Below, piece after piece: positions 19,545-28,316 of a stretch of 35,451 bases of DNA. The stretch covers positions 1 to 35,451 of the IMG/VR virus record IMGVR_UViG_2740892422_000002. One strand, written 5' to 3'. Origin of the DNA: a virus (lineage: Duplodnaviria; Heunggongvirae; Uroviricota; Caudoviricetes). Under the pieces are notes generated by a model. It was given only the letters and a program-made list of their open reading frames with translations. It did no database searches and was not told where the DNA came from. The position numbers and the translations under genes are program-made. The stretch's first letter is position 1. The number at the start of each line of letters is the position of its first letter.

Positions 19545-21108
19545 GAGCAGTGTCCCCCAGCACACGCGCCTTAAAGCACACCTCCGCCAGTTGCAGGGCA
19601 AAGTCGTCCGCGTTCAGCGTTTCCTGAAGCTCAGGCAGACGTTTCAGAAAGTCATCAAAACTGTCGCATTCCTGCGCCAGTGTCAGCACCGGGTTCGTGA
19701 ACGCCTCGCCGGTTTTCTGCCAGTCACGCAGGGCATCATCCACCATCTGTGCCAGTTCATCGGGGTGTTCACGGTTCAGGGCGACGCGCTCGCGGTTCAT
19801 CGCCATATCACCTGACATTCCGGCAGACACCGGATGCAGAACATCAGCCCCGTCGTCCGGTTCAGCCAGGCCGAACCGGTCCCGCAGCTCCGATTCCTGA
19901 ACCCGCATCCCCCGGTCAATCAGTGGCACCAGAGCGTCTGTCAGCGCCTTCAAATCTTCCGCTTCACTGATACGCAGAACAACACGGGGGTAGTGCGCCT
20001 GTGGCCCGTAGTTGGCCTCAATGTAGGGGCGTACCAGATATTCATTCAGCGTGTTAGCCAGCTGCCGCGCGTCCCAGCGCACAATGTCCATGCGCACCTG
20101 ATTGTGCACGTCCGCCTGTGAACGCGAACTGCCGTTATCCGTGGTCATGGTCTGCCCCAGCACGGCTTTACTGATTTGCGCATCACACCATTCCGCCATT
20201 TCACGGAACAGTGCGCCGCCGTTATTCCTGCTGGCGGTTTCCTTCATCTCCAGTTGCATGGACTGCGGAATGGCACACCCGGCATCCGAGGCAATGGAGG
20301 CAATCGCATCAATCAGCACGCGGATTTGCTCCTCCGTGGCGTTGGGACCGTATTTCCCCACCGTGACCGGAATGCCGAATTTTTCCGCAAATGCCCACCA
20401 GTCGCGCACGGTAAAGGATTTCAGCATGTACATCACCGCCACCAGACGGGCCAGACCGTTACGCAACGGCAGACCGGATTTCAGGCGCGGCTGGTGAACA
20501 ATGAATTTTCCCGGTGTCAGCGGTACGCCATCCACCGGTTCATCGTCCGTCAGCAGGCGGAACTGGCGCAGCGTGGGTTTTTCGGCTTTCAGAAAACGGG
20601 GATCAACCCATTCATAATCACGGGGCATCCAGTGGTTGTTGCGGGTGTCCCACAGGATTTCACAGACCGCCACGCCTTTTCCCAGCCCGTCGAGCAAATC
20701 AAACATCAGCTCAGGGATTTGCGGGGCTTCCATCAGCGCACGGATGGCGTCCGCCAGTTGCACGTCAGCATCGTCATCACTGGCGGCCACCACCACCGGT
20801 TCGATACCCGCCACCGTCAGCTTGCGGGTGCGCAGCACCGAGGCGTAATGCAAATCGCGTTCTTCCATCTCTTCAGCAAGGATAAAAAAATCACGTGTGA
20901 TGCCGTCGGCGGCATTGCGCAGAATGCCTGCCAGCCTGCCGGGGTTCAGCCCGGAGGCGACGCTGATACCCGGCGAGGCCGAACGCACACCGGCATGACG
21001 CGGACGGGCCTGTGCTTCGTTGAGCGCCTCTTTTTTCAGCGTGTCTTCCTCACCGGTTGCCGGGTTCAGCAGACGGCGAACGGCCCCGGCCAGTTGTTTC
21101 AGGTTCAC
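19537..21108 (-). CDS. portal protein (Mu H/gp29-like)
   Basis: 523-aa ORF with GTG start at 21108 preceded by GGGAGG RBS; GTGA overlap with terminase large stop. Confidence 0.85.
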   Translation of the reverse strand: MNLKQLAGAVRRLLNPATGEEDTLKKEALNEAQARPRHAGVRSASPGISVASGLNPGRLAGILRNAADGITRDFFILAEEMEERDLHYASVLRTRKLTVAGIEPVVVAASDDDADVQLADAIRALMEAPQIPELMFDLLDGLGKGVAVCEILWDTRNNHWMPRDYEWVDPRFLKAEKPTLRQFRLLTDDEPVDGVPLTPGKFIVHQPRLKSGLPLRNGLARLVAVMYMLKSFTVRDWWAFAEKFGIPVTVGKYGPNATEEQIRVLIDAIASIASDAGCAIPQSMQLEMKETASRNNGGALFREMAEWCDAQISKAVLGQTMTTDNGSSRSQADVHNQVRMDIVRWDARQLANTLNEYLVRPYIEANYGPQAHYPRVVLRISEAEDLKALTDALVPLIDRGMRVQESELRDRFGLAEPDDGADVLHPVSAGMSGDMAMNRERVALNREHPDELAQMVDDALRDWQKTGEAFTNPVLTLAQECDSFDDFLKRLPELQETLNADDFALQLAEVCFKARVLGDTAHA

Positions 21109-22640
21109 AGTAAACCTCCCTCATTTTTCAGGCCGCGCGTCAGCTTCATCTGGCGGCGCGCGTTGCGTTCTTCCGGTTTCGCCGGGCGGTTCAGGCGGTG
21201 CAGTTCGTAACGGTGGCAGTCATCCTTGCTGGCAAGGAAGCCCAGGAAAATGGCCACAGCGGCGTCGCCGTGACGTTTGTGACCGTCGCTGCCTCTGGTT
21301 CGTGAATCATCAATGCCGGGAACGCCACGCAGTAACTGAATGGCCCCGAGGTCATTGATCACGTCTTCATGCTTCGGAAGGATCAGCTCATCATCTTCAA
21401 ACGCTGCACGGAACCGGGGCATGTTTTCGCGGTAGAACGCCACGGACAGCATCACCTGTTCCACTTCGTCGCCGTACCGCTCCGCCGCCTGTTCTGCCAG
21501 ATACTGACCATTCCCCCGCGCATCCATTTTGATACCGTCACGACGGGGCAGACGATCGCAAAGCCAGAACAGCACCTGCTCCTGCTGTTTAAACGGCACA
21601 TTGCCAAGCTCAACCAGGAACGGCACCTCGCGGGTGGTGTCATCGTTCACCGTCACCGGGGCCAGTACGGTCAGGTCACCCGAACGCGCAAAGTCTTCCC
21701 CCAGACAGTGGCGCAGGTTCTTCGGGAGTTTTTTCAGCTCGGGGCGCACCACCGTTTCCAGCCATTCCCGGATATCTGCCCGGCGCTGGCTTTCCGTCAG
21801 TGCGTTAAATTCCGGTGTGCCGGTAAAGCGCAACACTTTCCCGGTGCCACGGGCCGCACGTTCACGCAGTGAGCGGCGGATATACGTGCCGCCGCCGTTT
21901 TTCGGGACGCAGTAATACTCCTCCAGCGCGTCTTCGCGGGTGGCGGTATTTCGCAGCAGGCCTTCTTTCCATTCCGCCTCGGCTTCCGGTGACCACACCA
22001 TGCCGCGCACCTGACAGATACGTCGGTACAGCCCGTCATTGCAGGCGTCGTCCAGCGTGATGGTGTGAATGCTGTAATCTTTTTTGCCCGCGCGGCTTTC
22101 CTGAATCAGCTGGTTAAACAGGTTGTCCACGCCGTCATGGGTGGAAATAAGGCGAATTTTGCCGCCCCATGTTTTCAGCGGCAGCACAGCCTTCAGCAGC
22201 TCGTCCAGTTTTTCATGGAACGCGGCCTCGTCGATGGTGACATTCCCCTGCATCCCGCGAATGTTGCTCGGGTTGCTGGACAGTGCCTTGACCTTAAAAC
22301 CGCTGGCGAAGTACACGACGAACGTCAGAATGTCCTTGTCTTCGTCGGTGATCACTTCCTCGCAGATTTCTTCCGCTGCCGCATTAAACGCTTTCGCCCA
22401 CATCGCCACAGCGTCGATAAATTCGCGGGCCATCTCCTTATTCGAACCGATATAAAAGTGATCGCGCCCGCCGTCTTCCTTCTTCAGCGATGCCGTCAGT
22501 GCTGCATCTGCCGCCTCCGCCCAGGTTAAACCTGTACGGCGGGATTTCTCGGCGATTTTCAGGTCGGCATCATCCGCCACCCAGCGTTTCTGATACGGCA
22601 GCAGAACATCATATTCACTGAACGTATCCATTTGTGTCAT
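21105..22640 (-). CDS. terminase large subunit
   Basis: 511-aa ORF; ATGA overlap with the terminase small gene; ATPase and nuclease-like regions; position upstream of portal. Confidence 0.9.
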   Translation of the reverse strand: MTQMDTFSEYDVLLPYQKRWVADDADLKIAEKSRRTGLTWAEAADAALTASLKKEDGGRDHFYIGSNKEMAREFIDAVAMWAKAFNAAAEEICEEVITDEDKDILTFVVYFASGFKVKALSSNPSNIRGMQGNVTIDEAAFHEKLDELLKAVLPLKTWGGKIRLISTHDGVDNLFNQLIQESRAGKKDYSIHTITLDDACNDGLYRRICQVRGMVWSPEAEAEWKEGLLRNTATREDALEEYYCVPKNGGGTYIRRSLRERAARGTGKVLRFTGTPEFNALTESQRRADIREWLETVVRPELKKLPKNLRHCLGEDFARSGDLTVLAPVTVNDDTTREVPFLVELGNVPFKQQEQVLFWLCDRLPRRDGIKMDARGNGQYLAEQAAERYGDEVEQVMLSVAFYRENMPRFRAAFEDDELILPKHEDVINDLGAIQLLRGVPGIDDSRTRGSDGHKRHGDAAVAIFLGFLASKDDCHRYELHRLNRPAKPEERNARRQMKLTRGLKNEGGLL

Positions 22641-23218
22641 GCGCTAATCCCCAGAATTTCACGTTTGATGGTGTCAGCCGCACCACCTGACAGACCGCCC
22701 GTTCTGACCAGTTCTTCGGTTTTCTCTGCCATCTCCTGCGCAAACGCATCGCGGATCGCTTTCTCGCGTTTATGGCTGGTCATGGCTGCCGCTTCCAGAC
22801 GCTGGGCAACCAGCGCCAGTTGCCCCAGCGCCTTCGGTGCAACGGGCTTGTCGTCTTCTGCCATCGACATGGACGTTTCAAAGGCCAGCGTTTTCACAAA
22901 CTCCATCAGCAGCTTGCCGACGTCTGACGTCGGCGCGGAACCCAGCTTTGCCGCCCAGACTTCGGCCATTTCGCGGGAGGCGCGGATTTTGGCCCCGACT
23001 TTTTCCATGCGGATGGCATAGCGGTTTAAGCCCGTCCGGCTTAACTGCATCTCTTCCGGCAGGTTGTGTTCGTCAATCAGGGCGTTGATGGCTTCGCGGA
23101 TTTCTTCCTGCGTGTGCCGCTTTTCCCGCAGCATCTGATGCAACTGCTCCCGGATGCTGTCAGGGAGTAAATCCACTTTGGAAAGACGGCCACGGGTGGG
23201 GCGTTGTTCATTTTCCAT
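22637..23218 (-). CDS. terminase small subunit-like DNA-binding protein (Mu gp27/D-like)
   Basis: 193-aa product from ATG at 23218 with AGGAGG RBS (the ORF-track start at 23239 is a GTG); ...SKVDLLPDSIREQLHQML... typical of the Mu-like terminase small subunit family. Confidence 0.7.
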   Translation of the reverse strand: MENEQRPTRGRLSKVDLLPDSIREQLHQMLREKRHTQEEIREAINALIDEHNLPEEMQLSRTGLNRYAIRMEKVGAKIRASREMAEVWAAKLGSAPTSDVGKLLMEFVKTLAFETSMSMAEDDKPVAPKALGQLALVAQRLEAAAMTSHKREKAIRDAFAQEMAEKTEELVRTGGLSGGAADTIKREILGISA

Positions 23219-23355
23219 GTGTGCCCTCCTGTTGCTCACTACGCTGTAAACTTTCGTATGCAGATTTCAGTGCGCCGCTCTGGATTTCCCGCCATGTCAG
23301 GTTGTGCGCCAGACGGCGGAGTTCATCACGGGACGCTTTACTTATCGGATTCTTT

Positions 23356-23655
23356 TTACGGTTCACGACGGCCCCCGTCTTCAGTTCCCGGTGTTTTCAG
23401 ACCGGCGTATATTTCTTCGCGAACGGAGCGGATATCCTTACCCAGCAGCTTCCACAGCCGCGCACATGCCGGTGATGAACGCAGGGCACGTTTCATGGGG
23501 GTATCCGGTGCATCCGGGTTCCAGGGCTTTCCGGTCTGTTGTTCATATGCACGGGCGATGGCGTTTTTCTCAATATCCGCGAGCACAAGACAGTACGCCA
23601 GCTGCCGCACGACGGCCCGTTCTCCGCGACTTAACGGCTTCAGTTTTCGGGCCAT
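23356..23655 (-). CDS. hypothetical protein
   Basis: 99-aa ORF tightly packed after the upstream gene; no family recognised. Confidence 0.4.
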   Translation of the reverse strand: MARKLKPLSRGERAVVRQLAYCLVLADIEKNAIARAYEQQTGKPWNPDAPDTPMKRALRSSPACARLWKLLGKDIRSVREEIYAGLKTPGTEDGGRREP

Positions 23656-23657
23656 GC

Positions 23658-23951
23658 TCAGTCCCTCGCACGGGGTTTCTTAACGCCCGGAACGCTGGAC
23701 AGGCCGTTTGCCACATCCTCACCGCTGCCGGTGATTTCAGCCACGTAACAGCCGCCCACATCAGACAGACGAACCAGCCCCTGCTCGCGCAGCCATGCAA
23801 GCTGGGTGCGCACCACATCACGGGATACCTTATGACCGTAGGCCTGAAGGCAGGTCTGCAACACGGATTCATTCGCGCTGTCGCCACAGTCCAGCAGGGA
23901 ACGCAGCAACACCAGACGACGGTCTTCAGTGAGGATCTCTTTCATCGCCAT
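23658..23951 (-). CDS. hypothetical protein, possible winged-helix DNA-binding protein
   Basis: 97-aa ORF with ATG at 23951 overlapping the upstream stop; helix-rich N-terminal half. Confidence 0.45.
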   Translation of the reverse strand: MAMKEILTEDRRLVLLRSLLDCGDSANESVLQTCLQAYGHKVSRDVVRTQLAWLREQGLVRLSDVGGCYVAEITGSGEDVANGLSSVPGVKKPRARD

Positions 23952-24256
23952 TATTTTTTTTCCTTTAACTCGTTCTCTAATAACAAATCGCTGATGCGGG
24001 ATACCTGGCGGATGGATGGCCCCAGCTCTTTGATTTCTCCCCGCAGGTTGCTGATATCCAGTTGCAGGCGGTGGAACTCATCACGGTCGGGTAAATGGTG
24101 TACCTGGCTTTCCATCACCGACACGCGGGAACGGAGTGAATCAAACTCTTCACGTTTGACGTAGGTTTTCGCCAGAATCAACTGAAGCAGGTTTATTCCT
24201 GTCATCAGCAATGCCCACAGAATGGGCCAGTTGGCTCTGATCATTTCCCAGGACAC
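23951..24256 (-). CDS. membrane-anchored coiled-coil protein (DUF2730-like; candidate lysis accessory protein)
   Basis: 101-aa ORF with N-terminal hydrophobic segment WPILWALLMTGINLLQLIL followed by a charged coiled-coil region. Confidence 0.5.
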   Translation of the reverse strand: MSWEMIRANWPILWALLMTGINLLQLILAKTYVKREEFDSLRSRVSVMESQVHHLPDRDEFHRLQLDISNLRGEIKELGPSIRQVSRISDLLLENELKEKK

Positions 24257-24468
24257 GTTTTCCTCCTGCGTTCACGCATCTGCTGACAGTCAATACAGGT
24301 CACCACATCCGGCAGCGCCGCAAGGCGCTGTGCCGGAATAACGTTCCCGCAGTCATTGCATAAGCCCCGGCTGTGGGGCGCTTCTTTTGTCCGCGTCTGC
24401 CAGGCTTTAACGACGCTCTGACGCTCGTTCAGAACCACTTCACTGATGCGGTCGATTTCGTCGGTCAT
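24241..24468 (-). CDS. TraR/DksA-family C4 zinc-finger protein
   Basis: 75-aa ORF with CNDCG...(17 aa)...CIDCQ motif. Confidence 0.75.
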   Translation of the reverse strand: MTDEIDRISEVVLNERQSVVKAWQTRTKEAPHSRGLCNDCGNVIPAQRLAALPDVVTCIDCQQMRERRRKTCPGK

Positions 24469-25073
24469 TTCAGCCCCGCAGAAATTTTGTGACGGCTTGA
24501 CTTGCTGTAACGGGCAAAGCCGTCAAGGGTTCTTACACCGAGATAGCCCAGCGCCGGGGTAAGCAACATCAGCGTGATATCCCAGTCCGGTGACGGCATA
24601 TGCAGCGAGATACCTCTGGCACCGGCAATGGCTCCGGCAATCTGGCCGCAGGAGAGCAACAGCACATAGGCCAGACTGCTGTAACAGGAAAGGCGGGCCA
24701 GCAGCGGGCGCGTCTGGCGCACATAGCTGTCCGTGGCGTTGTCACCATTGCGGATGGTTTCCTGCTGTTCGTGGTGTGCGGCCTGCTGGTCAGCCAGCAC
24801 CAGCTTCTGCCGTTCCACCTCCAGCTGTTGCAGCTGAATTTTCAGGGTTTCCAGTTGTATCTGTTGTTCCGGTGGTAACATCGCCATCTTCTGTTCCAGA
24901 ACGCGCTGCTGTTCAGCCACCGGCAGGCTTTCCCGGACGCTTTCCACCATACCGGCCACCGAGTCAGCGGCAGCAGACGTGCTGCCACCAAACCAGCGCC
25001 CGACGGAACGAATCAGCCCCGGCCCGGCGTTCAGCAGAACAGAGGCGATGCCTGAAAGGGTTAACGGATCCAC
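24465..25073 (-). CDS. coiled-coil membrane protein (candidate spanin-like lysis protein)
   Basis: 202-aa product from GTG at 25073 preceded by GGAGG RBS; Gln/Glu-rich heptad-like region; C-terminal hydrophobic stretch containing LLLSCG. Confidence 0.4.
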   Translation of the reverse strand: MDPLTLSGIASVLLNAGPGLIRSVGRWFGGSTSAAADSVAGMVESVRESLPVAEQQRVLEQKMAMLPPEQQIQLETLKIQLQQLEVERQKLVLADQQAAHHEQQETIRNGDNATDSYVRQTRPLLARLSCYSSLAYVLLLSCGQIAGAIAGARGISLHMPSPDWDITLMLLTPALGYLGVRTLDGFARYSKSSRHKISAGLK

Positions 25074-25486
25074 GGGAAACCTCCATACAGATAACGCTGA
25101 AGACAGAGCAGACCGCCGCAACTGCCACCACACAGCCAGAACACCGGATGCACCGGTGACATCATCATCAGCGTGCTGAAGACGCAGCAGAAATACCCCA
25201 GCGCCCAGACCACCCATGACCACACGATGATGTGGCGACCAAAAGCCCGGTAACGGACTTCAGGCAGCAGGCGAAATGGCACATTCCCGAGGCTTGCGCT
25301 GTATGAAAACAACACCACCCCGGCAAAGGACAACAACATCAATACGAACGATCGCCAGCCACATAACATGCTGATGATGAACATGCAGAGTGTCAGTCCG
25401 GCCAGCGGCCATGGCGTTCTCATCAGTCGGGAACAAATCAGCCAGTCACACAGTTTTAAAATTTTGTTCATTACCTTTTTCCACAT
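25061..25486 (-). CDS. polytopic small membrane protein (candidate holin)
   Basis: 141-aa product from ATG at 25486 with GGGA RBS; three to four hydrophobic segments, Cys/Trp-rich. Confidence 0.4.
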   Translation of the reverse strand: MWKKVMNKILKLCDWLICSRLMRTPWPLAGLTLCMFIISMLCGWRSFVLMLLSFAGVVLFSYSASLGNVPFRLLPEVRYRAFGRHIIVWSWVVWALGYFCCVFSTLMMMSPVHPVFWLCGGSCGGLLCLQRYLYGGFPWIR

Positions 25487-25697
25487 TGAATTTTTCCCTG
25501 TACTTCTGGCACTGCCAGAAAATGTCCCGTGTATCCACGGAGTTCCAGCCACGCATGTAGTAGCTGGCGTGTGTGCCGTCATGGCCTGTATAGTCCAGCG
25601 GTTTCGGGGGCGGACCTCCGGCCATGCGGTGCAGAACCTCCTGACGCAGGCGGTCACGCCGCCCGGCTTTCAGTGAGGCATCCCAGCCTTTACCCAT
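25446..25697 (-). CDS. hypothetical protein (lysis cluster)
   Basis: 83-aa ORF whose ATG at 25697 follows the endolysin stop; no transmembrane segment or lipobox. Confidence 0.4.
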   Translation of the reverse strand: MGKGWDASLKAGRRDRLRQEVLHRMAGGPPPKPLDYTGHDGTHASYYMRGWNSVDTRDIFWQCQKYREKFNVEKGNEQNFKTV

Positions 25698-25698
25698 A

Positions 25699-26283
25699 TC
25701 ACCCCCGCGTGGCGGACATGATGCCCAGAGGGGTAAGACAGGCGTCGGTCAGCTTTTCCATGCGGTTAAACCAGCCGTTCAGGTATTTGCCCTGGGCGGG
25801 TTTTGATTTGATGATGTCGGCATAAAAGCGGGAACGACGGACAATACAGCGGGCCAGCAGCCAGTCAGGGGTGGACTGGCTCACGGCCTTGCGGGTACGC
25901 GGCCCGATGATGCCGTCAGCATCCACATCAGCGGCCTCCTGCAAAAGTTTGATAGCCTTTTTAACGCCATGCTGAACCGCCGCATCAAACACAAAAAGCG
26001 CCACGCCATCAGGCCACTGGTCACACCCGGCAGGCAGCCAGTAATCGCGCCAGTAAATCTGCGCAACCTGTTCGCGGGTCAAATCCTTAATGCGGGTATC
26101 CGGTTTGCCGTCGCCGTTGACGTCGGTTTTGCCGTCAATCACACCGTCGCGGCGGTCAGAAATGCCGTATTTGGTTTCGCCGCCACGGTCAGTGGGGTCA
26201 TTGACATAGACGCCTTCGATATCGGGACGCAGAATGAAATTCAGCGCATGTTCAAAGGCCGGGGAGAATTTTTGATTTTCCAT
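25699..26283 (-). CDS. endolysin, glycoside hydrolase family 108-like with C-terminal peptidoglycan-binding domain
   Basis: 194-aa ORF; N-terminal ...ALNFILRPDIEGVYVNDPTDRGGETKYGIS... matches the GH108 catalytic motif; no signal or SAR sequence. Confidence 0.8.
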   Translation of the reverse strand: MENQKFSPAFEHALNFILRPDIEGVYVNDPTDRGGETKYGISDRRDGVIDGKTDVNGDGKPDTRIKDLTREQVAQIYWRDYWLPAGCDQWPDGVALFVFDAAVQHGVKKAIKLLQEAADVDADGIIGPRTRKAVSQSTPDWLLARCIVRRSRFYADIIKSKPAQGKYLNGWFNRMEKLTDACLTPLGIMSATRG

Positions 26284-26338
26284 AAAAGCACCTGTGAAGC
26301 AGATTTAAACGTGGTCTGCTTCATGGTGCCGGAGGCAT

Positions 26339-26362
26339 AAAAAAAGCCGGATTTACCGGCTT
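26339..26362 (-). terminator. Rho-independent terminator-like hairpin with U-tract (copy A of a duplicated element)
   Basis: Minus strand AAGCCGG-TAAAT-CCGGCTT followed by T-run; lies between the secreted-protein gene stop (26385) and the endolysin start (26283). Confidence 0.6.
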
Positions 26363-26384
26363 CATTGAATATAAGGTTATTGGT

Positions 26385-26882
26385 TCAGTTAACTTTACGG
26401 GCAGAACACGTAGTCTTCATTACTGAACGTTCAATTTTTATCTTCCAGCCATTTACTGTTTTTTCGACAGGATCATCTTCAGCTTGCTTTAAATTTTTAA
26501 CTTGCATGAAATTCAGCGGGGCTGGGGTATCATCGTCCCATGATGTCGGGCGAACATAATCAGGGACAACAAAAGGCTCAAAAACAGTTTCACATAAAGC
26601 AGACGTCATTTGAGCGAACTCGTCGCTATCGGGGCGAACCGGTCCTGTAACATACTGCATTTTTATGTTGATTTCGTTATCTCGCACAGACGTCTTTAAA
26701 TCCTGATATACACCTAAGTTAAATCCTTTAAACTCAGCAATGGCAGCGTCACCTTTACCGTACCAGTCGGTATAGTCAACGGATGTTTTTTTCTGAAAAA
26801 CATCTTTGACTTTTTGCTGGAATGTATCCGCCGCTTGTACAGTAGTAACAGTTAGTAAAAGAATAAGGGGAAGATATTTCAT
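26385..26882 (-). CDS. secreted/periplasmic protein of unknown function (AT-rich moron)
   Basis: 165-aa ORF with N-terminal signal peptide MKYLPLILLLTVTTVQA|AD; markedly AT-rich relative to flanking phage genes. Confidence 0.7.
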   Translation of the reverse strand: MKYLPLILLLTVTTVQAADTFQQKVKDVFQKKTSVDYTDWYGKGDAAIAEFKGFNLGVYQDLKTSVRDNEINIKMQYVTGPVRPDSDEFAQMTSALCETVFEPFVVPDYVRPTSWDDDTPAPLNFMQVKNLKQAEDDPVEKTVNGWKIKIERSVMKTTCSARKVN

Positions 26883-27280
26883 TGTTCGTCCTTAAATAGT
26901 TGCATTTGATATTTTCCACGCTCCAGTCGGCGCATTCTTTTGATGGCCTGATATACCGTTTTGTATGTCACTTTGTAACGCTGCACCAGCTCCGCTACGT
27001 TTTTCCCATCAAAATCACGCCAGATGCGCATGTCTCTGATAAGATTTTCCAGTATTTTCCCTTTCGGAACATATACCTGAATCCCACCGATATGATTGCA
27101 AATCGCCACTACCAGCTCAAGGGAGTGGGCAGGGTTAACTCCAAGCCTTATCAGCTCTTGTCGCAACAGAGCATTCAGCTCAGCCAGTAAAGATGGAAAT
27201 CCCGATTTTTCCTGAACATCATCAAAATATTCAAGGATACTGTCGTCCTGATAATCACCAAATAAATCCTGCTCTTTCAT
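26879..27280 (-). CDS. mor: Mor/C-family transcriptional activator
   Basis: 133-aa ORF with acidic N-terminus and C-terminal ...AHSLELVVAICNHIGGIQVYVPKG...YKTVYQAIKRMRR... resembling Mu Mor/C; located directly after the gemA-like gene. Confidence 0.7.
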   Translation of the reverse strand: MKEQDLFGDYQDDSILEYFDDVQEKSGFPSLLAELNALLRQELIRLGVNPAHSLELVVAICNHIGGIQVYVPKGKILENLIRDMRIWRDFDGKNVAELVQRYKVTYKTVYQAIKRMRRLERGKYQMQLFKDEQ

Positions 27281-27828
27281 AGAACTATTCTCCCGCTGTT
27301 TCTGGCGCGGGCATACGCACTGGTCAGTGCATCATATCCGCGCAGTTCCCGCCCGGTTTCGCTCACAGGTAAAGGCACGCCGTGTCGGGCAAAGGCTTCC
27401 CGAATGCAGCGCATATGCCACTGCTTGAGCGTTTCGAGCACAACCTGCAACGATTCCCCATGACACCAGGCCAGCGTGGAAACACCCTGACCACCATTAC
27501 GTCTGGCCGTCAGACGTTCAACGTATTTGTCCAGCGCGGCGTCGCTGATATCGGAGACGAAACCATCAAGAAACATCTGCTGCCAGATTTTATAAATCTT
27601 CTCGCGCGGTGTGACATGCCCCTTAAAGCGACGGCGGGGATGTTTTTTCTGCTTTTTAAAACCGCGCTCTTTCATGGCATCGAGCACTTGTTCCAGTTGT
27701 GCAACAGACAGCTCGCGGCAACTGGTTTTGCCCGTGCACTGCACCAGAAAAGCTCGGTAAGTGTCATCGTCGAGTTGCAACTCCCGACGGGCAACATGAA
27801 TTAATTTAATCAGGGATGTGCGGCTCAT
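27277..27828 (-). CDS. gemA: GemA-like early protein
   Basis: 183-aa ORF immediately upstream of mor, matching Mu gemA in position and size. Confidence 0.6.
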   Translation of the reverse strand: MSRTSLIKLIHVARRELQLDDDTYRAFLVQCTGKTSCRELSVAQLEQVLDAMKERGFKKQKKHPRRRFKGHVTPREKIYKIWQQMFLDGFVSDISDAALDKYVERLTARRNGGQGVSTLAWCHGESLQVVLETLKQWHMRCIREAFARHGVPLPVSETGRELRGYDALTSAYARARNSGRIVL

Positions 27829-28141
27829 TATGTCCCCCGGATTTAAAAATTAATTCAGTGTTGAATAGCTCTTTACTCATTCGCTGTAGCACATCGAGGG
27901 CGGCAACTGCCGCCACTTTATCCTGACTGGCAATGATTCCCCGCAACTCTTCGATAATCCATGCAGGGCTTAATGATTCAGCAATCATCGTGCGCTTTTC
28001 TGAAATTAAATTTTCTCTGGCCTGCTCATAGTGTTGGTATACGACATTATCCAGAAAATAATTTACCTCTTGTTCTGACATGCCACTGGAAATTAAGGTT
28101 GCAGCCATTAAATCAGCATCAGTAATCATCTGTATTTTCAT
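27806..28141 (-). CDS. hypothetical early protein (AT-rich accessory region)
   Basis: 111-aa acidic ORF between gam and gemA. Confidence 0.5.
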   Translation of the reverse strand: MKIQMITDADLMAATLISSGMSEQEVNYFLDNVVYQHYEQARENLISEKRTMIAESLSPAWIIEELRGIIASQDKVAAVAALDVLQRMSKELFNTELIFKSGGHNEPHIPD

Positions 28142-28316
28142 TTCTTAATACCTCTTCGCAATAAAAGATTTCATTGGGATAACGTTTTTGTATGCGCTCA
28201 ATCACCTGCATACATGCCTGCTCTGTGGGCCAGATTTTTTCTGTTGCCGGGATAGCATCACAGGCATCACTCCCGCAGGTGCCAACCAGCAGGACAAAGC
28301 CAATTGACTTAATCAT
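28119..28316 (-). CDS. small secreted or lipoprotein-like protein
   Basis: 65-aa product from ATG at 28316 (MIKSIGFVLLVGTCGSDACD...): N-terminal hydrophobic segment followed by Cys, with four further Cys. Confidence 0.45.
   Translation of the reverse strand: MIKSIGFVLLVGTCGSDACDAIPATEKIWPTEQACMQVIERIQKRYPNEIFYCEEVLRNENTDDY

Follow-up and report, generated by a model that had tools for sequence, protein, structure and literature searches.

The lysis genes of the Escherichia coli Mu-like prophage carried by the IMG/VR virus record IMGVR_UViG_2740892422_000002 (35,451 nucleotides (nt), analysed over the whole length and hereafter called the window) form a cassette that, with a probability of roughly 70%, heads the late operon and is the holin-dependent counterpart of the holin-less lysis cassette of phage Mu. 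The cassette (23951-26283, minus strand) consists of six closely packed or overlapping genes, here named A to F in the order in which they follow each other on that strand: a soluble GH108 endolysin (A), a small soluble protein (B), a polytopic membrane protein (C), a predicted holin (D), a TraR/DksA-type zinc-finger protein (E) and a DUF2730 protein (F). A first-pass annotation of the window had described five open reading frames (ORFs) at this location as a lysis module in which an endolysin is accompanied by an unassigned holin/spanin set. The five ORFs are present as described, all on the minus strand, with E overlooked as the sixth gene, and the assignment to a lysis module is borne out as homology places D and F in lysis-related families. 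With respect to the unassigned set, only B and C stay outside informative families and deserve the label uncharacterised, while the predicted holin is related to a known family and a spanin was not found.

The endolysin A (25699-26283, minus strand; 194 amino acids (aa)) is a GH108 N-acetylmuramidase with a PG_binding_3 domain, as evident from Pfam (PF05838, E-value 9e-24, 84.2 bits at a cutoff of 21.2; PF09374, 2e-17, 63.8 bits at a cutoff of 24.6), PHROGs (phrog_315 endolysin, 2e-55) and the relatives 2IS5/2IKB in the PDB (8e-20), with which the E-G-x-Y...D-x-G-G-E-T motif is in register. The catalytic region IEGVYVNDPTDRGGET aligns with hEGGYaNHPkDpGGET of 2IS5, whereby the glutamate is kept and the second glycine is replaced by valine; the protein also gives a hit, though a sub-threshold one, to the NCBIfam model 'holin-associated N-acetylmuramidase'. 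Compared to the solved homologue 2IS5, A possesses at residues ~47-62 an insertion of about 12 residues (IDGKTDVNGDGKPDT) with a DxDGDG motif resembling a calcium-binding loop, which is found in the enzyme of a Klebsiella phage too. Over the full length of A, starting with the N-terminus MENQKFSPAFEH, no 19-residue window reaches a Kyte-Doolittle hydropathy of 1.2, the threshold set for a hydrophobic segment. As the first-pass annotation had recognised, the enzyme thus has neither a signal peptide nor a signal-anchor-release (SAR) segment and therefore needs a membrane-permeabilising partner, a holin.

The predicted partner is D (24465-25073, minus strand; 202 aa), which is translated from a GTG start with GGAGG 6 nt upstream. 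D begins with a weakly hydrophobic helix (aa 3-24), to which a helical domain of about 95 aa is joined. Two predicted transmembrane domains (TMDs) follow at aa 124-152 and aa 166-180, separated by a short loop, and the C-terminus is basic. With the three hydropathy peaks, which recur in 71 of 113 family members, and with basic residues after TMD1, before TMD2 and after TMD3, the central domain and the C-terminus are predicted to be cytoplasmic in an N-out/C-in topology as in class I holins. Contrary to the initial impression that no recognisable holin family is present, D matches PF11351 (GTA_holin_3TM; E-value 6.5e-4, 20.6 bits). With a profile of D, an exhaustive HMMER search gathered 152 representatives, and 36 of the 113 relatives scanned match PF11351 individually, with 4.7e-10 as the best value, another family being hit by one protein only. 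The D-family profile aligns with TeaA (ORF137), the holin of phage ICP1, across 135 columns, the N-terminal WFGG motif among them (hhalign probability 89.8%, E-value 1.8e-6). Moreover, the AlphaFold2 (AF2) model of D built from the 113-sequence alignment, with a predicted local distance difference test (pLDDT) score of 92, has as its top Foldseek match in BFVD a protein annotated as 'Holin of 3TMs' (2.6e-7); a search of the PDB for relatives of D retrieved none. D is consequently predicted to be a divergent PF11351 relative and a holin, not a curated member of the family.

The genomic context of the family points in the same direction. Directly upstream of the D homologue lies a gene for a peptidoglycan hydrolase in 41 of 65 diverse viral loci (DUF5675 in 20, GH108 in 12, T4-type Phage_lysozyme in 4, M15 in 4 and DUF1353 in 1), and in 6 more a C-like gene is placed between GH108 and D, so that at least 47 of the 65 loci show the association once B and C are skipped. 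DUF5675, the commonest of these upstream neighbours (loci among L094-L163), gains support as an endolysin as it fills the endolysin slot, in agreement with the suspicion voiced for Vibrio phage Martha, whose endolysin may be its DUF5675 protein (Chamblee et al., 2022; PMC9239132). The plaque-forming Vibrio phage 1.028.O possesses the order GH108-B-D-TraR-DUF2730 without C, and in this phage a TMD is confined, among the non-structural late proteins, to the D-like protein and DUF2730. It is this elimination, together with the homology to two holins with experimental support, that leads to D as the predicted holin. One PHROGs profile of 284 columns, phrog_2121, aligns with B over its positions 3-85, with C over 198-259 and with D over 91-273, each at an E-value <1e-29; this profile apparently merges neighbouring or fused gene calls and is unreliable as a family.

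The last gene of the cassette, F (23951-24256, minus strand; 101 aa), is the fifth gene downstream of A in this transposable phage. Judged by its match to PF10805 (1.3e-30, 105.9 bits at a cutoff of 24.9, with residues 4-98 of 101 covered) and to gp25 of Mu (26% identity, BLASTP E-value 3e-11), the protein, previously left unassigned, clearly belongs to DUF2730, the releasin family of Mu gp25. Its TMD at the N-terminus (aa 9-29) is followed by a charged helical domain, and the charges K30, K34 and R35 beyond the TMD, along with the topology given for DUF2730 (Chamblee et al., 2022; PMC9239132), predict an N-out/C-in orientation with the helical domain in the cytoplasm. Mu is without a holin, and gp25, demonstrated not to be a holin itself, is necessary if the SAR endolysin gp22 is to be released (Chamblee et al., 2022; PMC9239132). 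As A does not possess a SAR domain, the Mu releasin mechanism cannot apply to F as described. DUF2730 proteins occur also in Mu-like phages with non-SAR endolysins, where their role has been posed as a question (Chamblee et al., 2022; PMC9239132), and the prophage is one of these cases. Between D and F, E (24241-24468, minus strand; 75 aa) encodes a C4 zinc-finger protein of the TraR/DksA type where Mu has gp24 (PF01258, 1.4e-10, 41.5 bits at a cutoff of 24.9; TIGR02419, 61.2 bits at a cutoff of 59.7). Of 70 diverse loci, 36 have kept this gene between D and DUF2730; its product is probably not a lysis effector.

Compared to the lys operon of Mu (Chamblee et al., 2022; PMC9239132), the cassette occupies the same genome position, after Mor and before the gp27-type small terminase (TerS), and retains gp26 (61% identity), gp25/DUF2730 (26% identity) and a small zinc-finger gene before DUF2730. 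The differences concern the lysis effectors: the Mu endolysin gp22 is a SAR T4-type lysozyme while the prophage endolysin is a soluble GH108 enzyme; Mu possesses the spanin gp23/23.1 while the prophage fills the gp23 slot with the PF11351-type holin, B and C; and Mu is holin-less while the prophage cassette is predicted to be holin-driven, with a releasin homologue that has no SAR endolysin to release.

Directly upstream of D, and overlapping its start by 13 nt, is C (25061-25486, minus strand; 141 aa, shortened to 136 aa if the start used by PGAP, the ATG at 25471, is taken), a polytopic inner-membrane protein with 9 cysteines and 9 tryptophans, 13 lysines and arginines versus 2 aspartates and glutamates, and four hydrophobic segments, which by hydropathy correspond to four TMDs with N-in/C-in topology. 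C did not match any holin family in Pfam, PHROGs and NCBIfam and has no Pfam or NCBIfam match whatsoever; a word-based search of 5.8 billion proteins provided just 4 close clusters, and tblastn against phages found none. Homologues were recovered by genomic position, that is from the gap between B and D, not by sequence search: in 75 of 76 enterobacterial loci this gap holds an ORF of 109-141 aa with three or, mostly, four TMDs. The alleles share in most cases the loop motif LGN[LV]P[YF]RL and end with W-I-R/Q, or in some with W-T-R or W-I-L, the C-terminal W-I-R/Q being due to the 13-nt overlap with the start of D. The two E. coli alleles of C share about 40% identity, as opposed to 91-97% between the D genes that accompany them. 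The ratio of non-synonymous to synonymous substitutions (dN/dS) amounts to 0.22-0.33 for C versus 0.03-0.17 for A, B, D and F, and the synonymous rate (dS) of C is 2-3 times higher than that of its neighbours, which suggests allele exchange; despite its fast evolution, C is still under purifying selection.

Whether C might be the real holin, with D as an accessory (antiholin, lysis regulator or second holin), needs to be considered, as a small, polytopic and highly basic membrane protein within a lysis operon is a natural candidate and many holins, like C, evolve fast. The E. coli alleles furthermore begin with two near methionines around basic residues (MWKKVM in the window, 25471-25486; MHRM in another E. 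coli locus, L008:3603-3614), which resembles the dual-start holin/antiholin motifs of lambdoid phages, a feature missing in the Klebsiella alleles. C is, though, missing from the plaque-forming Vibrio and Shewanella Mu-like phages, which combine soluble endolysins (GH108 or DUF5675) with D, as well as from the enterobacterial locus L066, and C is therefore regarded as an accessory and not as the core holin. Given these absences, the failure of C to match a holin family and the homology of D to two holins with experimental support, this alternative assignment is considered unlikely. C probably works like an antiholin or regulator of D, by analogy in architecture and position to ArrA of ICP1.

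ICP1 provides a notable parallel among characterised lysis systems. TeaA of ICP1 causes the proton motive force to collapse and can be triggered by dinitrophenol (Hays and Seed, 2020; PMC7182436). The teaA/arrA locus (ORF139-ORF138-ORF137) is similar to the cassette in that D shares remote homology with the holin TeaA, that a protein with four TMDs is encoded directly upstream of the holin, namely the antiholin ArrA (ORF138) there and C here, and that ORF139 (L164:9753-10097, upstream of arrA; 114 aa), which combines a TMD at its N-terminus with a charged coiled coil, mirrors the architecture of F within the same operon; on the other hand, the gene order differs and ICP1 is a large virulent myovirus. 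A further parallel is the rcc00555/rcc00556 pair of RcGTA, the gene transfer agent of Rhodobacter capsulatus, where a GH108/PG_binding_3 muramidase likewise adjoins a PF11351-family membrane protein, in an alphaproteobacterial, host-regulated system without B, C, TraR and DUF2730 genes; D represents a divergent branch below the Pfam cutoff. The RcGTA pair is reported to have been tested in E. coli by Westbye in 2013. The RcGTA lysis system is likewise not known to have a spanin.

Several observations weigh against a holin function of D in concert with C and F. At 20.6 bits, D stays below the PF11351 gathering cutoff of 24.8, so that the family assignment is built on transitive and profile evidence, and the holins with experimental support in PF11351 lie outside the subfamily of D itself. 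The topologies are predictions based on hydropathy together with the positive-inside rule rather than on a dedicated predictor or an experiment. The Janthinobacterium phage Donnerlittchen (L087:2708-3962), a non-Mu siphovirus, combines a bona fide LydA-type holin (PF16083) and an M15 endolysin with a D-like protein (PF11351, E-value 0.002) encoded in the usual spanin position; a D-family protein is thus not necessarily the holin of every phage that encodes it, an observation which also speaks for an accessory role of D as discussed above. The C-family profile shows no homology to ArrA (hhalign probability 0.04%, BLASTP E-value 15) and DUF2730 no significant similarity to ORF139 of ICP1 (hhalign 4%), so that C as an ArrA family member and DUF2730 as an ORF139 homologue are discarded and the two comparisons are analogies only. 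DUF2730 also co-occurs with other types of holin, as in B23 (PF13272), or with none, as in Mu, which leaves the partnership of D and F a candidate only.

In addition to a holin, the first-pass annotation had counted a spanin among the candidates, had pointed to a lipobox-like LLLSCG segment in D and had suggested a search for an outer-membrane spanin (o-spanin) embedded in an alternative frame. The LLLSCG segment is located inside TMD2, and its cysteine is replaced by leucine, isoleucine or valine in the homologues of Klebsiella, Pectobacterium, Yersinia, Edwardsiella and Citrobacter, so that it is not a lipobox. A lipobox scan of all starts and all frames on the coding strand of the 35-kb window delivered nothing credible beyond the in-frame LLSC inside D, and turned up also the TMD-internal LASC and LVSC strings of C. 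Among 154 related loci, no conserved lipobox ORF, embedded or separate, was present within -1.8 to +1.5 kb of D, so that neither in the window nor in these loci a credible embedded o-spanin was found, and the complete genome of Vibrio phage 1.028.O does not contain a coding sequence with a lipobox. The criteria of the scan fit the N-terminus MKILSLLAFAFVLGGC of the B23 o-spanin as read from its translated sequence, the scan itself not having been run on B23. Two further ORFs, one proline-rich and of 59 aa in an alternative frame of D (24569-24748), the other of 38 aa within C (25168-25284), were rejected as neither has a canonical lipobox; in the Klebsiella locus L002, no alternative-frame ORF of at least 50 aa was seen at the position corresponding to D.

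These negative results are of relevance as the slot of D is where spanins reside in related phages. The Mu spanin gp23/23.1 sits in the same slot; B23 has there an inner-membrane spanin (i-spanin) followed by the proline-rich lipoprotein beginning with MKILSLLAFAFVLGGC, in addition to a PF13272 holin; POA1180 has a protein with two TMDs and an i-spanin-like protein; and Rhodobacter phage RC1 carries a PF11351 protein (24.2 bits) between lysozyme and DUF2730. With these varied contents, the region from the endolysin to TraR/DUF2730 is an exchangeable module for which at least three solutions exist, whereby the PF11351 version comes without spanins. That D, alone or with B, replaces the spanin by acting on the outer membrane or by fusing inner and outer membrane after murein degradation, with C or F as the holin, would be compatible with its position in the slot of the Mu gp23/23.1, B23 and POA1180 i/o-spanin pairs, with its long helical, coiled-coil-like domain and with the occurrence of D-bearing cassettes devoid of any spanin. 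The positive-inside rule, however, places the helical domain of D in the cytoplasm, a lipoprotein partner is not encoded, and homology of D to an i-spanin is ruled out by comparison with Mu gp23 (hhalign 2%). Moreover, the PF11351 members RcGTA 556 and TeaA behave as holins, and with D as a spanin, Vibrio phage 1.028.O would be left with DUF2730 as the only holin candidate. Altogether, a spanin-like D is very unlikely.

B (25446-25697, minus strand; 83 aa) starts 1 nt past the endolysin stop and encodes a soluble, basic protein without a TMD. Homologues of B are assigned to PF26867, a recent Pfam family (precomputed assignment), and the AF2 model consists of three helices (pLDDT 77), for which the search of BFVD and PDB folds provided no informative match. 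B-like genes with 27-79% identity lie between the endolysin and D in Mu-like phages of Klebsiella, Shewanella and Vibrio, and the dN/dS of B is 0.07-0.09. At a guess, B is a cytoplasmic regulator of A or D.

The cassette as such is real, intact and under selection. The same gene order is found again in 76 enterobacterial viral contigs, and purifying selection acts on all five genes tested (dN/dS 0.03-0.33 over 60 loci), which together show that the ORFs are not due to chance. The prophage occupies the window with nearly all genes on the minus strand, and megablast with 23300-26900 gave a match of 100%, 1 nt apart, to the chromosome of the porcine E. coli strain ETEC1732, with 54 E. coli records matched in total and zero matches among 50,697 phage records. 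The sole difference over 9.6 kb compared to ETEC1732 concerns a run of eight adenines at 23954-23961 (minus strand), at the junction of the F stop and the G start (GAAAAAAAATAATGG); with seven adenines in ETEC1732, the DUF2730 ORF is lengthened to 109 aa and the start of the next gene shifted. The run reflects either a slippage-prone homopolymer or an assembly error. Such a frameshifting difference and the finding of prophage copies only for the E. coli version would fit a decaying, non-inducible prophage in which some ORFs such as B and C are remnants or annotation noise. However, every ORF is intact in the window, the dN/dS values indicate selection, the same cassette is present in the deposited genome of Klebsiella phage Kp4866-3 (an unannotated GenBank 'UNVERIFIED' record) and the cassette without C occurs in plaque-forming Vibrio phages, which makes decay highly improbable.

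A terminator-like hairpin (26343..26363, minus strand; GAAGCCGG-taaat-CCGGCTTT followed by a T run), recognised by consensus scan and in the sequence, is located between the stop of an upstream gene for a secreted protein and the start of A. By its position directly upstream of A, the endolysin gene appears to head the late transcription unit like lys in Mu, and the hairpin is inferred to mark the start of this lys-like unit. The upstream flank contains Mor (26879-27280), GemA/gp16 (27277-27828), Gam and the transposase, the downstream flank the Mu gp27-type TerS (22637-23239) and the large terminase TerL (21105-22640). The downstream boundary of the cassette is G (23658-23951, minus strand), a winged-helix-like member of the VpaChn25_0724 family and homologue of Mu gp26 (E-value 2e-42; NF050184, 122 bits), which is not considered to be one of the lysis genes.

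Between Mor and the endolysin, a gene (26385-26882, minus strand) with the terminator-like hairpin next downstream encodes a 165-aa secreted protein, Sig165, with the signal peptidase I signal peptide MKYLPLILLLTVTTVQA/AD. Sig165 did not match any family but has a homologue in gp19 of Vibrio phage 1.028.O (jackhmmer 3e-40); its slot is the Mu gp19/gp20 position, where other phages encode differing secreted or membrane proteins. A universal periplasmic lysis factor is ruled out, with homologues in just 13 of 155 related loci. In the early region, a 65-aa ORF (28119-28316, minus strand), for which no family was matched, begins with MIKSIGFVLLVGTCGSDAC, an N-terminus of the signal-peptide or near-lipobox type, followed by a cysteine-rich acidic domain.

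The order endolysin-(B)-D-TraR-DUF2730-gp26-TerS is shared with Vibrio phages 1.028.O and Martha 12B12, Shewanella phage MuM16-2, Klebsiella phage Kp4866-3 and Rhodobacter phage RC1, in which the D-like genes are annotated merely as 'hypothetical' or 'coil containing protein'. These phages differ in that C is found in the enterobacterial branch only and in that the endolysin is either GH108, DUF5675 or a T4-type lysozyme. All are given as DUF2730 phages without a SAR endolysin in Table S1 of Chamblee et al. (2022; PMC9239132).

Cumulatively, the following course of lysis is proposed. A, without an export signal, would accumulate folded in the cytoplasm, while D would build up in the inner membrane, oriented N-out/C-in so that the helical domain of about 95 aa faces the cytoplasm. 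At a defined moment, D would trigger and form holes through which A could reach the murein, as suggested by the homology to two holins and by elimination. C, encoded directly upstream, would most likely modulate the timing of D in an antiholin-like manner, in analogy to ArrA in architecture and position. F, tethered to the membrane and exposed to the cytoplasm, would most likely act on the membrane-level timing of D; for comparison, Mu gp25 acts in SAR-endolysin release (Chamblee et al., 2022; PMC9239132). B would play an accessory part in the cytoplasm and might regulate A or D. As a spanin is not encoded, this course of events leaves the outer-membrane step unaccounted for.

A more far-reaching proposal, which is tentative and rather improbable, is that in Mu-like phages with soluble endolysins DUF2730 controls a holin and that PF11351 cassettes finish Gram-negative lysis spanin-less. 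DUF2730 could promote the membrane exit or rearrangement of the weakly hydrophobic, glycine- and proline-containing N-terminal helix of D, which is followed by a conserved arginine; alternatively, DUF2730 could lower a membrane-energetic threshold sensed by SAR domains and holins alike. If lysis is spanin-less, the outer-membrane step would be carried out by an unrecognised component, either B or the holin itself, or not at all.

With respect to its components, the cassette is built mostly from known families, namely GH108, a PF11351-related holin, TraR and DUF2730, while the pairing of holin and releasin appears to be new: the literature searched contains no account of Mu-like phages that combine a PF11351-type holin with a releasin homologue. 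A practical consequence is that hundreds of 'hypothetical' or 'coil containing' proteins of Enterobacteriaceae prophages can now receive the label of PF11351-related putative holins. Among the transposable phages, a clade from Escherichia, Klebsiella, Vibrio and Shewanella emerges without a recognisable spanin (154 loci scanned), and these missing spanins bear on the universality of the three-step lysis model. The prophage is a host-tractable E. coli example for the role of DUF2730 beside non-SAR endolysins, the question raised by Chamblee et al. (2022), and as the partner is identifiable as a PF11351-type holin, the interplay of releasin and holin becomes testable in the strain background of Mu. 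If true, control of a holin by DUF2730 would explain why this family is retained in Mu-like phages whatever their endolysin.

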